In this document: one piece after another, positions 33,001-57,000 of the stretch
Numbering within the stretch: the stretch's first letter is position 1
Layout: every line of letters starts with the position of its first letter
DNA from: Stx2-converting phage Stx2a_WGPS6
Sequence record: AP012539
Length of the DNA stretch: 57,849 nucleotides
Direction: 5' to 3' (one strand)
Position numbers: made by a program

Positions 33001-36000
33001 AGCATCCTCCTGAAATGGTGGAAAGCGGGGCTCACCTGCTGATGGAAAACCTCGCCATGGTTAACCCGAATCTCGGTTATTCGGTGGATGAGGCTTTTCT
33101 GTACCGGGAGTACCGTAAAGCCCGGGAGGCTGGTGAGGAAGCATTTCGTGGCTTCATGTCAAAACATGCCAATGTGGAAATTGGTCTTGCCCTGCGTTCT
33201 GACCGCTGGGCGGGTGCGGATTTCTGGGAGCAGCAGGGCAGGCGCGTCAGCCTGGACGATATCCTGCAGCGCGCTGATGTGGTGACGGTGGGGATTGACG
33301 GCGGGGGCCTGGATGATCTGCTGGGAATGTACGTGATTGGCCGTGACAGGGAAACCCGCGAATGGCTGGGCTGGGGCCATGCCTGGGCGCATGAAACCGC
33401 GGTGGTCCGACGGAAGAGCGAGGCGTCCCGGTTTCAGGATCTTGTTGCCTGTGGAGATATGACCATTGTCCGGCGTGTCGGGGATGACACGGCGGAAGTG
33501 GCGGAATATGTGCGTCGCATTCATGAGGCTGAGTTACTGGACCATATCGGTATTGACCCGTCAGGGGTGGGGCAGATTCTGGATTCACTGGCGGAAGCCG
33601 GGATCCCCGACGGAATTGTGGTGGGGATAAGCCAGGGCTGGAAACTGGGCGGGGCCATTAAAACCACCGAGCGCAAACTGGCTGAAGGGGTGCTGGTGCA
33701 TGGTGACCAGCCCCTGATGGCCTGGTGTGTCGGCAATGCCCGGGTGGAGCCTAAAGGTAACGCCATTCTTATCACCAAACAGGCCAGTGGACGGGGAAAA
33801 ATTGACCCGCTGATGGCGCTGTTCAATGCGGTCTCCCTGATGTCCCTTAACCCGGAACCGAAAAAGAAAGAATATGCGGTTTTTTTCATATAACCCTGTT
33901 CACACTGTAACCATCATGAACCGCTGCGGCGGTTTTTTTATTTTCAGGAGGCTGATGTGACTCTTAAACGGGCCTGTTCCCTGCTGACGGTGAAATCCTT
34001 CAGTGAGGATGAACGGGTGATCACCGGGATTGCGTCAACGCCTTCTCCGGATCGGGATGGTGACATCCTGGAGCCGGAGGGCGCGGAGTTTGGCAGTGCG
34101 ATCCCGTTTCTCTGGCAGCATGACCATTCCCGCCCGGTGGGGCAGTGTACGGTGCGCCGGGTCAGCGAAGGGCTGGAAATCACGGCAACACTGGTGAAGC
34201 CCGTACCGGATATGCCGTCGCAACTGGCTGCCCGGCTGGATGAGGTCTGGGCGGCCATTAAGACCGGGCTGGTCAGGGGGCTGTCCGTGGGCTTCCGTCC
34301 CCATGAATACACCTTTCTGGACGGAGGCGGACTGCATTTTCTGTGCTGGGAACTGATGGAGGTGTCTGCCGTCACCGTGCCCGCGAATGCGGAATGCACC
34401 ATCCGGACCATTAAATCTTACGACCGCCCGTTTTCTGCCGCGTCCGGCAACCGGAAACCGGTGGTGAAAATCGCATCTTCTGCCGGCGCTGCGGCACAGT
34501 CAACAACCGTTTTTCATAAGGAAAAGACCATAATGAATATTGGCGAACAGATTAAAAGTTTTGAAAACAAGCGTGCAGCGCTGGCAGCCTCCCTTGAGGA
34601 GGTCATGACCAAAGCCGCAGAGGAAGGGCGCACGCTGGATGTGGAGGAGGAAGAGCATTACGACAACACCGCAGCGGAAATCCGTCAGGTGGATGCGCAC
34701 CTGAAGCGCCTGCGTGAACTGGAAGCCGGTAAGGCCGCCACGGCGCAGCCGGTGAAACAGGCCGGTAACGGGAATGTGGCCGCGGTGGCTTCTGCGCCGG
34801 TGATCCGTGTGGAGCAGAAACTGGATAAGGGGATTGGCTTCGCCCGCTTTGCCAAATCGCTGGCTGCGGCTAAAGGCGTCCGATCTGAAGCCCTGGAAGT
34901 GGCCCGTCGTCAGTATCCGGATGACAGTCGTCTGCATCATGTCCTGAAATCGGCAGTGGGCGCGGGGACCACCACGGATCCGCAGTGGGCAGGCAGCCTG
35001 TCTGAATATCAGGAATACGCACAGGACTTTATTGATTACCTGCGTCCGCAGACCATTATCGGGCGATTTGGTCAGGGCGGGATCCCTGCACTTCGTCAGG
35101 TGCCATTCAATATCCGTGTGCACGCCCAGGTGTCCGGCGGTGCTGCCGGCTGGGTGGGTGAGGGTAAGGCAAAACCCCTGACGAAGTTTGATTTTGAATC
35201 CATCACCTTCAGTCATGCGAAGGTGTCGGCCATTGCGGTACTGACGGAAGAATTGATCCGTTTTTCCAGTCCGGCTGCTGATGCACTGGTCCGTAATGCG
35301 CTGGCGGAAGCGGTGGTGGCGCGTCTGGATACAGACTTTGTGGACCCGAAAAAAGCCGCAGTGGCAGATGTCTCCCCGGCGTCCATCACCCATGATGTGA
35401 AGGGCACGGCATCAACCGGTAACCCGGATGCGGATGCCGAGGCTGCGTTTGGACAGTTTGTGGCAGCAAACCTGCAGCCCACCGGTGCGGTCTGGCTGAT
35501 GTCCAGCACCAATGCCCTGGCACTGTCCATGCGTAAAAATGCGCTGGGTCAGAAGGAATACCCGGACATGACCCTGCTGGGTGGCTCCTTCCAGGGGCTG
35601 CCGGTGATTGTCTCCCAGTACGTGGGTGACCAGCTGGTGCTGGTGAATGCCCCGGATATTTATCTGGCGGATGACGGCGGCGTGGCAGTGGATATGTCCC
35701 GCGAGGCATCACTGGAAATGCAGTCTGAGCCGGGCGGCGACAGTACCACGCCGTCCCCGGTGGAGCTGGTTTCCATGTTCCAGACAGGCAGCGTGGCCAT
35801 CCGTGCGGAGCGCTGGATCAACTGGTGTCGTCGCCGTACTGCGGCGGTGGCGGTGATCACCGGAGTGAACTACGGCAGTGCGTCCGGCGGCTGAGTCTGA
35901 TAAGGAGGACGGGAGGCGTGCGCCTCCCGTAACAGGTTATGGCAAAGATCCGATATCTGCAGGGCACGCATGATGCCCGGGCCGGGGATATCCGTGATGT

Positions 36001-54000: not shown

Positions 54001-57000
54001 AAGACGGCAGAAAGTGCAGCCGGTAATGCAGCCAGGGATGCAACGACCGCAACAGAAAAAGCCCGGGAGTCAGCAGAAAGCGCACAGTCAGCGGAACAAA
54101 GCAGGATAGCGGCGGAAGAGGCCGTAAACCGAATCCCCACGGTGGTGGGGCCTCCCGGGCCAAAGGGGGAACAGGGGCCCGCGGGTCCTCAGGGGCCGAA
54201 GGGTGATAAGGGAGAGCGGGGTGACACCGGCCCTGTCGGGGCAACCGGTGAAAGGGGGCCGGCAGGTGATGCTGGTCCGGCAGGCCCGGCAGGCCCGGCA
54301 GGCCCACAGGGACCGAAAGGAGAAACAGGTGCGGCTGGCCCGGTGGGGGCAACCGGACCTCAGGGACCGAAGGGCGACCCGGGGGAGACACAAATCCGTT
54401 TTCGTCTGGGGCCGGCGAGCATTATTGAGACAAACAGCAATGGCTGGTTCCCGGATACAGATGGCGCACTCATCACCGGACTGACCTTTCTTGACCCCAA
54501 AGATGCCACACAGGTTCAGGGGCTGTTTCGGCATTTGCAGGTCAGGTTTGGTGACGGGCCGTGGCAGGATGTTAAGGGGCTGGATGAAGTGGGCAGTGAT
54601 ACAGGCAGAACAGGAGAATGACATGAATATACTAAAAAAACTTATGCAGCGTCTGTGTGGTTGCGGAAAGCATGATGGCCGTGAACACGTGCAGTCGCTT
54701 ACAGCACAACTGCGACTGGGGCCGGCAGACATCCTGGAGTCCGATGAGAATGGTATTATTCCGGAGCAGGACAGGGTAATCACGCAGGTGGTGATACTGG
54801 ATGCGGATAAAAAGCAGATACAGTGCGTGGTAAGACCGCTGCAAATTCTGCGTGCTGACGGGAGGTGGGAAAATATTGGCGGAATGAAATAGCCGACAGC
54901 TTCACAAAAACCGGAGTCCGGCTCCGGTTTTTGTTGTCATGTCCGGTGGATGTTTGTTAGGAATGTTCAGACAGGTTTATTTTGAATTTACACAGAATCC
55001 TAAACAGGTTCGAAAATTAAGAAAGAGGTTGTATGTTTAGCATAAGAACCCTACTACCTATTAGCGCCAGCGTATCAGTTCCGACAAAACAATCTCAATC
55101 CATCCCAATAACTTTAGCAGGGAGAACAATCGAAAAAGCGCAAGAGAAAGAAGGATTACTTGTTTTTTTAGGAATGAAATCCGTTAATGACTATACTCTT
55201 AATATTCTTGGCCAAAATGTTTCAAGAGTCACAACGGGGAAAAAACCGTATGATTTATTATTCCTGAATGATGCTACAAAACAAGATTTTGATAAAAGGA
55301 AAATGGAGTTTACATATCCTGGAGCAAATAAAAGCCATCTACAATCAAGTAATAGCGATGTTGTTGCTGCTGCAGCTATAAGTATTACAGCGACAGAGAT
55401 GAAAACCATCCTGCCAGATGATTTAACACTAGGAAAATACAACAAAATTTATCTGTCTGGGCATGGTTCTGCTGGTCTACCTCTTCTTAAGTGCGGAGAT
55501 GAATTTTTATCACCGTCAGATATTGTCGACCGCATTGTTCAGCATAATCTTCATGAAATAGATGATATCAGATTAACATCCTGTAACTCAGCCAACATAA
55601 TAAAAAACAAAGACTTCTCTCCTGATGAAATAGAAAAATCCGCAAATATGAATAACGGCTGGTTGGCCAGGGCATTATTTGGTCAAAAGAGGTCTTTAGC
55701 AGAACACGTCTATGCCGAGTTTGAACGTCGCGGAATTAACGTTTCTATATCAGGTTACCATGGCACTGGCGTTTTTTATGTACCAGAGCATGGTAAACCA
55801 ACAACGCATCTACGCTCCACAACTGTGCCTGCAACACCTGAACATACTGTAAGAAGAAGCGACTACAGAGCCACTTTGGGTAGAACTCAACCCATAGATA
55901 TTGAGTAATTGAGCCAGCATATACACTTGATGGTTAGGAAACAGAATCATTGTTTTAAACATTTCCTGGCCATTAATATTGTCGGCGGGAGCATATCCAG
56001 GACTGGCCGGCAAACCGGGTACGCGATCTGTTGCCATGGAAAGTTGATCTGAGCGCTCAGTAAATATCAATACGGTTCTGGCGAGCCGCTTACGATGCAT
56101 GAGAATCACTAATAGTATGTAATTATTACATTTTATTTACAATGCTGTTTCTGTTGGTCTGTATCCATAATTATGAAATGCTGACTTATGGTGTCAAAAT
56201 AACACATATTCCTTTCAATAATCATTTCTTTTACTATCTTTTCCCTGCTGAGAGGGTGGGGTAGATGTTCTCTTGTGAGATTCATGAACGCAGACTTATC
56301 ATAAAGAGTGCATATGTTGGAGTTCAGTGCGTTCTTGACAAAAACCCCTTTTTCTGGAACGCATAATGTTATTGGGCACTTAAGAAATTGTGTGTCGCAA
56401 GAGAATTCATCAGGATTTACAACAAATGAATGAGAATGGATTTTATTTTTAAGGGCGTTTTCGGCCCCTTTTTTCCATCCTATATTTGAAGATAATTGAA
56501 GCATAAAATCCTGAGATATTTGTGCAAAACTTCGTCCGTTGTTGATCTGCTGTTCCAGGTTGCGAGCAATAGTGTTTTGTCTCGCCATAAATATGGAGAA
56601 ATGATTACTGCATACAGGATTTACTGTAAAACCATTGACTGATTCGATATAACGGATATCCATTTTATAACGTTCTTTTATGATTACAGTATCATTTTGA
56701 TTTTGCTGCACAATATAACGTAAAGATGCTAGCTCATTCTCAGGTAAGATACTGCCTGCTGTGAAGTTTAAAAAGATAGGCATGTTTTTTCTGTAATACA
56801 AGTCGATTGTTTGTGATTTCGCGCTGTAGGTATATTATCATTCATATTTAACTTCCTAAAGTATGACCTCGTAGGGAGATAAATGCAATGCTTAAAGGTA
56901 GATTGAAATGATAAATTAGCGCTTGGTAAATCCAGAATTTCATAAAGAGAGAGGTGGTGTTTTTTCATAGCGCTGAGATGTAAGTTGCAACATGTATTAT

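Follow-up and report, generated by a model that had tools for sequence, protein, structure and literature searches.

The late region of the Shiga toxin 2 (Stx2)-converting phage Stx2a_WGPS6 was analyzed within sequence record AP012539, a stretch of 57,849 nucleotides (nt) that is referred to here as the window. The late region (31000-54999) is 97% identical to that of the Stx2c phage 2851, and the window constitutes a phage-2851-like Stx prophage with a Q antiterminator gene; many other Stx1a- and Stx2-converting phages match the late region at 94-96%. According to the open reading frame (ORF) map and the annotation of phage 2851, the lysis and structural genes downstream of Q are all co-oriented and form one unit. 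Head and tail genes were assigned by Pfam domains (Table 1), and the tape measure gene is followed by M, L, K, I, J, lom and the fibre module. The gene after the hairpin at 33919 is not portal; a fusion of prohead protease and major capsid protein lies there, and the portal gene follows it. Many of the junctions between these genes carry a GC-rich hairpin followed by a T-run. We consider it likely that these hairpins are genuine signals of the Rho-independent terminator type, that they are of two kinds (terminators at the edges of accessory cassettes and hairpins between core structural genes), and that they subdivide a single late unit whose expression depends on Q.

Hairpins and T-runs of the late operon

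A stringent scan of the region 31672-54932 (perfect stem of at least 5 bp with at least four GC pairs, a folding free energy of -7 or lower, and a T-run) returned 10 sites on the sense strand, at 33918, 40180, 41636, 45112, 45958, 47579, 49095, 52683, 53360 and 54908. Only two sites were found on the antisense strand, one of which is the bidirectional hairpin at 54910. When the region was shuffled 150 times with its dinucleotides preserved, 0.45 ± 0.69 sites were obtained (maximum of 3), and none of the shuffles attained the 9 sites that were scored on the excised region. Nine of the 10 sense-strand sites are intergenic, though gaps account for only about 3.6% of the sequence scanned. In the early region (1-12500), which is transcribed leftward, the mirror image was seen, with 12 minus-strand sites and no plus-strand site. 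Together with the sense bias of the late region, this shows that the hairpin signal tracks the direction of transcription.

The first-pass annotation had listed eight of these hairpins, all of which were recovered. Each folds as a single stem-loop (-8.5 to -23 kcal/mol across the listed hairpins) and carries 6-7 T within the first 8 nt 3′ of the stem. The list was incomplete, as it lacked the J|lom hairpin and a strong hairpin at 35910; the latter fails the T count and was therefore excluded from the terminator-like set. The description of the late operon as punctuated by hairpins thus stands insofar as the hairpins are real; the punctuation is not uniform, and six or seven of the hairpins border accessory cassettes (ant moron, small RNA [sRNA] locus, lom, operon end). 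At seven of the eight junctions that precede a late-operon gene, the distance from the end of the hairpin to the next start codon is 17-30 nt (51 nt for J), so that these gaps hold little beyond the hairpin, the T-run and a Shine-Dalgarno sequence.

A GC-rich phage genome may be expected to match a loose terminator consensus by chance, and with a loose scan that pooled both strands, the excess was indeed modest (26 versus 17.6 ± 3.8 and 23 versus 16.8 ± 4.8). This loose scan misses two sites, because A-U pairs may lengthen the stem and thereby use up the T-run. Furthermore, the hairpin at 45112 is probably a coincidence of coding, since it falls within the coding sequence of M and some of the relatives have a broken stem. 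Chance is already refuted for the set as a whole, given 9-10 stringent sites against the shuffled expectation and sites that are intergenic, sense specific and conserved in relatives; its probability as an explanation is negligible. An Rfam scan of the whole window at the gathering threshold returned no family within 33919-54932, and the matches outside this range were to STnc100, C4/isrK, tRNAs, ALIL and sRNA-Xcc1.

Table 1. Positions of genes, hairpins and other elements in the window (free energy in kcal/mol)
Feature	Position	Strand	Free energy	Basis or detail
Q antiterminator gene	22293-22781	+		Pfam PF06530
Promoter-like TTGACA after Q	22787	+		Sequence
First hairpin with T7 after Q	22827-22867	+		Scan
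terL	32232-33893	+		Pfam
terL|capsid core hairpin	33919-33942	+	-10.7	AACCGC-TGCG-GCGGTT + T7; between terL stop (33893) and protease-capsid start (33957)
Prohead protease fused to major capsid protein	33957-35894	+		Pfam
T-less hairpin	35910-35929	+	-19	CGGGAGGCGTGCGCCTCCCG; 15 nt 3′ of capsid stop
Portal	36106-38685	+		Pfam
Tail-completion protein	39814-40158	+		Pfam
Tail-completion|tail tube core hairpin	40180-40202	+	-8.5 (weakest)	CCCGC-CGCGT-GCGGG + T6; between tail-completion stop (40158) and major tail start (40217)
Ig-tagged tail tube (major tail) protein	40217-40933	+		Pfam
Chaperone T|tape measure core hairpin	41637-41658	+		ACCGC-TGAG-GCGGT + T7; 9 nt past T stop (41627), 24 nt before tape measure start (41675)
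HK97-type tape measure	41675-44917	+		Pfam
Hairpin with T5 in M coding sequence	45112-45138	+		A-G stem mismatch in 14 of 62 related loci
Left-edge hairpin of ant moron	45959-45982	+		CCCACC-GTCA-GGTGGG + T6; 9 nt past L stop, overlapping stop of leftward mnt-like gene
ant moron, P22-type immunity-I	45966-47561	both		Pfam Arc, Arc, P22_AR_N and P22_AR_C
mnt-like ribbon-helix-helix gene, 114 aa	45966-46310	-		Pfam Arc
Divergent promoter-like region	46311-46394	both		Consensus-like sites at 46320-46395 on both strands
arc-like gene	46394-46567	+		Pfam Arc
Antirepressor gene	about 46557-47561	+		P22_AR_N 1e-39; P22_AR_C 1e-23
Right-edge (ant) terminator hairpin	47581-47604	+	-14.8	CCCAGC-TTCG-GCTGGG + T6; 19 nt before K start (47616)
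PasB-family sRNA gene, antisense to late operon	48933-49002	-		81.7% identity to E2348/69 PasB over 71 nt
PasB-homologue terminator hairpin	48966-48940	-	-13.2	U7
Pre-J hairpin	49096-49126	+	-23	CAGGCACC-CTCCGG-GGTGCCTG, then UUGUUUUC; 51 nt before J start (GTG 49169)
J|lom hairpin	52686-52711 (stem-loop 52686-52703)	+	-15.3	GGCGTCA-GGAA-TGGCGCC + T6
lom|stf terminator hairpin	53361-53388	+	-18.3	GCCCGCC-GGTTCA-GGCGGGC + T6
Bidirectional hairpin, end of fibre module and late operon	54911-54935	both	-20.3	CCGGAG-TCCGG-CTCCGG flanked by A5/T5

Hairpins bordering accessory cassettes

The junction between L and K was compared among 52 related IMG/VR loci that were anchored on the tail tube gene. 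In 42 of these, the two genes are separated by 11-16 nt without a hairpin. The remaining 10 carry an insert of 1.7-2.3 kb, and all 10 possess both the 45959 and the 47581 hairpin; the left-edge hairpin is conserved while the interior of the insert exists in three versions. The insert of the window has a GC content of 44.4% (57-59% in the flanks) and, judged by its sequence and domains, is a P22-style ant moron: two repressor genes (Arc E-values of 1.8e-20 and 1.4e-4), a divergent promoter-like region and an antirepressor gene with both P22 domains. Morons have been described as units that bring a promoter and a terminator with them (PMC3594210), and the cassettes of the window have terminators of their own, at 47581 after ant, at 53361 after lom and at 48966-48940 (minus strand) after PasB.

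An identical copy of the 47581 hairpin (CCCAGCTTCGGCTGGG) is present at 20249, after the other ant gene of the prophage. This sharing of a stem had been reported by the first-pass annotation as one of two such pairs; the second copy exists, outside the range that had been given for it. The two ant genes share a nearly identical C-terminal region of about 100 residues, and the copy is explained by the homologous 3′ ends of both antirepressor genes; the pair simply represents a duplicated gene end with its terminator. The prophage comprises two antirepressor modules, one of the P1 type (18707-20267) and the P22-type mnt-arc-ant module (45966-47604). In the former, matches to the C4/isrK antisense RNA lie upstream of an ant gene with ORF6N and P22_AR_C domains.

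The gap between I and J (48929-49168, 240 nt) is 100% identical to Sakai prophage Sp15, differs from the same flanking GC range with 44.6%, and varies in length and content among related loci. Its minus strand encodes a homologue of PasB, an 83-nt sRNA of enteropathogenic Escherichia coli (EPEC) E2348/69 that is expressed as an Hfq-dependent RNA (PMC8550237). The stem of the PasB-homologue terminator is conserved among 42 loci, with a highly variable loop, and the published PasB probe matches this hairpin in relatives. Putative promoter hexamers, read by eye, are weaker in the window than in E2348/69. A second sRNA, EcOnc22 of the prophage-borne group EcOnc22-24, has been detected in enterohemorrhagic E. 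coli Sakai as an Hfq-dependent RNA of about 85 nt on northern blots (PMC4104026, Table S2). Its Hfq-binding peak maps to 49085-49145 on the minus strand, which is the antisense of the pre-J hairpin, and also overlaps the J leader. The PasB (49002-48933) and EcOnc22 (49085-49145) signals are adjacent and do not overlap, and both lie on the minus strand. In homologous sequence, terminator stem and position between I and J antisense to the tail operon, the window is like the published PasB and EcOnc22 loci. A 38-codon ORF on the plus strand (48974-49091) was rejected as a gene due to loss of its ATG and indels in relatives. Between the pre-J hairpin and the J start, a 7-nt unit, CAGACAT (49128-49150), is present in about one to four copies among related loci (L015, L037 and L066), so that the length of the J leader varies.

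The pre-J hairpin had been taken for plain operon punctuation by the first-pass annotation. This view is not supported as it stands: a published Hfq-binding peak, located in a sequence that matches the window without a difference, covers the opposite strand. Some of the late hairpins, and the pre-J hairpin in particular as part of the antisense EcOnc22, could thus be 3′ modules or bodies of Hfq-binding sRNAs. The position of the EcOnc22 peak, the PasB locus on the same strand and the fact that a hairpin with a U-tail is a canonical Hfq-binding module (PMC4104026) all speak for this explanation. It concerns one junction only, however, and no Hfq peaks were reported at the other tail-operon hairpins in uninduced Sakai, although late genes are silent under that condition. 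The 49096 hairpin lacks a U-tail when read on the minus strand, whereas its U-rich tail on the plus strand is conserved and HK97 has an annotated plus-strand terminator at this place. Among relatives, the stem has undergone a compensatory change from GCACC/GGTGC to GCATC/GATGC. We regard the explanation of these hairpins as sRNA parts as rather unlikely. In terms of cassettes, the I-J gap could be read as a reverse-oriented sRNA cassette that is closed on one side by a minus-strand terminator and on the other by a plus-strand hairpin.

The third cargo gene, lom, has a hairpin on either side. The stem between J and lom occurs in the forms GGCGTCA/TGACGCC, GGCACCA/TGGTGCC and GGCGCCA/TGGCGCC, and the window holds a G-U intermediate. 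Between lom and stf, the hairpin is conserved across 83 loci, lambda (19612-19633) among them; loop substitutions and wobble changes are seen. The GC content of lom (54.6%) is not different from that of its flanks, and no convincing promoter of its own was found for lom; the J|lom hairpin is only 30 nt from the lom start. In one related locus (L122), a 1.5-kb insertion, probably an insertion sequence (IS) element, lies within the J|lom hairpin, and part of the stem-loop is duplicated. The 24B_1 microRNA-size RNA reported near lom (PMC4426718) was set aside because phage 24B is a short-tailed Stx phage that has a different structural module. The bidirectional hairpin that ends the operon is also found at the end of Sakai Sp15, whose J|lom, lom|stf and operon-end hairpins closely resemble those of the window.

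Core hairpins at the capsid, tail tube and tape measure genes

Three hairpins lie at junctions of core genes with no cargo attached, namely, terL|capsid, tail-completion|tail tube and chaperone T|tape measure. Among closely related loci, the stems of these core hairpins persist, with substitutions in the loops and wobble changes. For the 33919 hairpin, the stem is retained in 45 of 45 IMG/VR loci, with variation in the loop and the outer pair, and the T-less hairpin after the capsid gene is retained in 49 loci as 11 variants, including a compensatory change of A-U to G-C at its base. The capsid gene is thus bracketed by two hairpins. In the sole informative phage among distant relatives of the terL|capsid junction, Moraxella phage Mcat7, the capsid gene is likewise flanked by hairpins, of which the upstream one has no T-run. 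The gap of 211 nt ahead of portal contains, after the T-less hairpin, a 73-codon ORF (35939-36160) without a Pfam match, and Mcat7 has a small ORF at the matching position. The portal ORF itself is 859 aa long; its Phage_portal domain covers residues 54-382 only, and a C-terminal extension of about 470 residues matches no confident family.

At the tape measure junction, a second stem allele (ACCTGC-TGTG-GCAGGT) was found in 13 loci. The 33919 and 41637 hairpins have GAACCGCTGNGGCGGTTTTTTTA in common, which confirms the other shared stem (ACCGC..GCGGT) of the first-pass annotation. A common origin of the two was not adopted, as their flanks are unrelated and stems of the CCGC/GCGG type are shared by many terminators, in the window and in relatives, that have no relation to one another.

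To extend the comparison, eight distant HK97-like tail modules with about 67% DNA identity to the window or less were inspected (HK97, 611R1, Aeromonas AsXd-1, two Klebsiella phages, mEp506, LMessi and Cronobacter ENT39118). A hairpin with a T-run precedes the tail tube gene in all eight and the tape measure gene in seven, and several of the modules have an additional hairpin after the tube gene. At both sites, position is conserved across phages of Escherichia, Klebsiella, Cronobacter and Aeromonas, while the stem sequences differ. The cargo upstream of the constant pre-tape-measure hairpin varies: gp15 in HK97, a lipoprotein in two related loci (L061/L062) and a 173-aa ORF in a Klebsiella phage. 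The insert of L061/L062, between chaperone T and tape measure, encodes a predicted lipoprotein of 136 aa (lipobox LTGC), and HK97 gp15, a superinfection-exclusion moron, lies at the same chaperone|tape measure junction.

Such varying cargo at one junction could also mean that the hairpins are relics of mosaic recombination and moron insertion, i.e., DNA-level junctions that have no RNA function now. They do coincide with module and cassette boundaries, one left-edge hairpin is common to three insert interiors, and an IS element has entered the J|lom hairpin in one locus. A palindrome that acts at the DNA level does not predict the strong bias of T-runs for the sense strand, however, and compensatory and wobble substitutions have preserved RNA pairing, while position has been conserved across genera despite turnover of the stems. 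We consider this explanation very unlikely.

An alternative that applies to the core hairpins is that they serve mainly as stabilizers of mRNA 3′ ends, as processing boundaries or as partial attenuators that set the ratio of capsid and tail tube to minor proteins, termination being secondary. Hairpins flank the capsid gene not only in the window but also in HK97 (3309 and 5192), lambda (D|E and E|FI) and Moraxella Mcat7; one lies ahead of the major tail gene, and in HK97-like phages there is also one behind it; the pre-tape-measure site divides the high-copy V/G/T genes from those of the low-copy tip proteins; and positions are kept across genera despite stem changes. Against this, nearly all sites have kept their U-tract, a feature that stabilization alone would not need, and simple attenuation would work in the wrong direction at two of the three core hairpins, since the most abundant proteins are encoded downstream of them. 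We hold this alternative to be possible but on the whole improbable. Simple attenuation fits the pre-tape-measure site only, because the other two sites precede the most abundant proteins; at those, stabilization of segments would be more plausible. A role of the three core hairpins in stoichiometry or mRNA stability is plausible, and we put it forward as a hypothesis only.

A bolder version would see the core hairpins as a conserved "punctuation code" of HK97-like structural operons that sets segmental mRNA stability, and through it the stoichiometry of capsid, tube and minor proteins, under Q. Its fixed junctions would be the two sides of the capsid gene, the 5′ side of the tail tube gene (often its 3′ side too) and the 5′ side of the tape measure gene. 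A terminating ribosome might mask the T|tape measure and L|moron hairpins and so couple transcription to translation of the upstream gene, and the constant pre-tape-measure hairpin might serve again and again as the terminator for new morons that insert on its upstream side. We think this version doubtful.

Late transcription and comparison with known phages

In the lambdoid phages lambda, 82, 21 and H-19B, it is established that Q-modified RNA polymerase passes downstream terminators. Terminator-resistant, Q-dependent late transcription is expected by analogy to be the mechanism in the window as well, since a Q gene lies upstream, the genes are co-oriented, sense-specific hairpins occur above chance, lambdoid Q proteins are known to act in this way and P22 provides a precedent. 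On the reading that we favor, one kind of hairpin would comprise cassette-edge terminators (both ends of the ant moron, the I-J gap, both sides of lom and the bidirectional hairpin at the operon end). In the lysogen, these might stop unmodified polymerase that starts at moron or spurious promoters from entering structural genes or ant, and each cargo would stay an independent unit. The other kind would be the core hairpins, each fitted in between a stop codon and the ribosome-binding site that follows, with a T-less partner after the capsid gene. The tape measure junction would double as a docking site, where different morons occupy the upstream side of a hairpin that stays constant. After induction, Q-modified polymerase from the late promoter would read through all of the hairpins; these would persist in the mRNA and may protect the 3′ ends of processed segments. 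Actual termination, resistance under Q and effects on mRNA stability or protein ratios are what we infer from this arrangement.

Several observations weigh against this reading. The stem at 40180 is short (5 bp; z = -1.1 versus shuffles), and the U-tract at 49096 is interrupted. The covariation test at J|lom gave 87.5% of cells paired and three double-change pairs, a weak result in view of 26 of 500 shuffles that scored as high, only eight sequences and a misaligned lambda row. Two sites (T|tape measure and L|moron) lie only 9 nt past a stop codon, a distance at which a terminating ribosome is reported to suppress termination (PMC4824070). Finally, the sole experimental RNA signal in the tail region comes from the opposite strand at the I-J gap, as seen by Hfq cross-linking and analysis of cDNA (CRAC) with northern blotting in uninduced Sakai and by RNA interaction by ligation and sequencing (RIL-seq) in EPEC. 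Public Term-seq data are available for Sakai (GSE143631; PMC7547250).

Further hairpins and elements were seen elsewhere in the window. In the upper late unit (22827-29411), sense-strand hairpins with T-runs are found at 22827, 23359, 24935 (the 3′ end of the STnc100 match), 28120 and 29365. After nanS-p comes a strong terminator of the minus strand (27516-27488); blastn of E2348/69 PasA and PasD2 against the window gave no match, and this terminator was thus not assigned to PasA. Another minus-strand hairpin, of 12 bp and with a T-run (14185-14212), lies antisense to the cII-like gene at its 3′ end, the position of the lambda oop terminator. The early-left region is interrupted by an IS3-family element (8767-9980) with an ALIL frameshift pseudoknot (Rfam).

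The result is mainly a correct annotation of an Stx prophage. It explains the sizeable intergenic gaps of the late operon, accessory cargo (ant moron, PasB/EcOnc22 sRNAs and lom) is set apart from the core structural genes, and hairpins are identified that could leak transcription into ant, lom or tail genes in the lysogen. If the core hairpins do tune capsid and tail stoichiometry, this would be a modest addition to the biology of phage gene expression and no new principle.

In P22-like phages, the tailspike gene is preceded within the late operon by an ant moron, which has been proposed to modulate the read-through of late transcription into that gene (PMC2629481). The cassette of the window resembles P22 immunity-I in its gene set mnt-arc-ant, its Pfam domains, its divergent promoter-like sites and the terminator after ant, and it likewise lies within the late operon directly 5′ of a tail gene; given this placement, only antiterminated late transcription should pass it. 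The differences from P22 are that the insertion site, between L and K, belongs to the tail cluster of a lambda-like siphovirus instead of preceding the tailspike gene of a podovirus, that the left edge bears a terminator too, and that the mnt-like protein is longer (114 aa).

The closest parallel to the hairpins as a set is HK97, whose late operon, with that of HK022, was reportedly treated by Juhala et al. in 2000 in the paper that is said to have coined the word "moron." In the HK97 record (NC_002167), "putative terminators" are annotated before the protease and capsid genes and after the capsid gene, at the tail terminator|major tail junction (6692-6719) and at the chaperone(+gp15)|tape measure junction. 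A terminator also precedes J (15107), beside a reverse moron with its own minus-strand terminator. The HK97 tail module has about 67% DNA identity to that of the window, and the stem sequences differ. Unlike HK97, the window lacks hairpins both downstream of the major tail gene and at the K|I junction, and it possesses the L|K ant moron and a head module of a different type (fused protease-capsid). Lambda shares with the window the Q gene upstream, followed by a promoter and an immediate terminator. It has five intergenic sense-strand hairpins (I|J, J|lom, lom|stf, D|E and E|FI), of which that at J|lom (18920) corresponds in position and that at lom|stf is homologous to the hairpin of the window; unlike in the window, the D|E and E|FI hairpins flank E, and none is found at U|V or before H. 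A late operon punctuated by hairpins is therefore an architecture already described for lambda- and HK97-like phages, and the one in Stx2a_WGPS6 is ordinary and known in kind.

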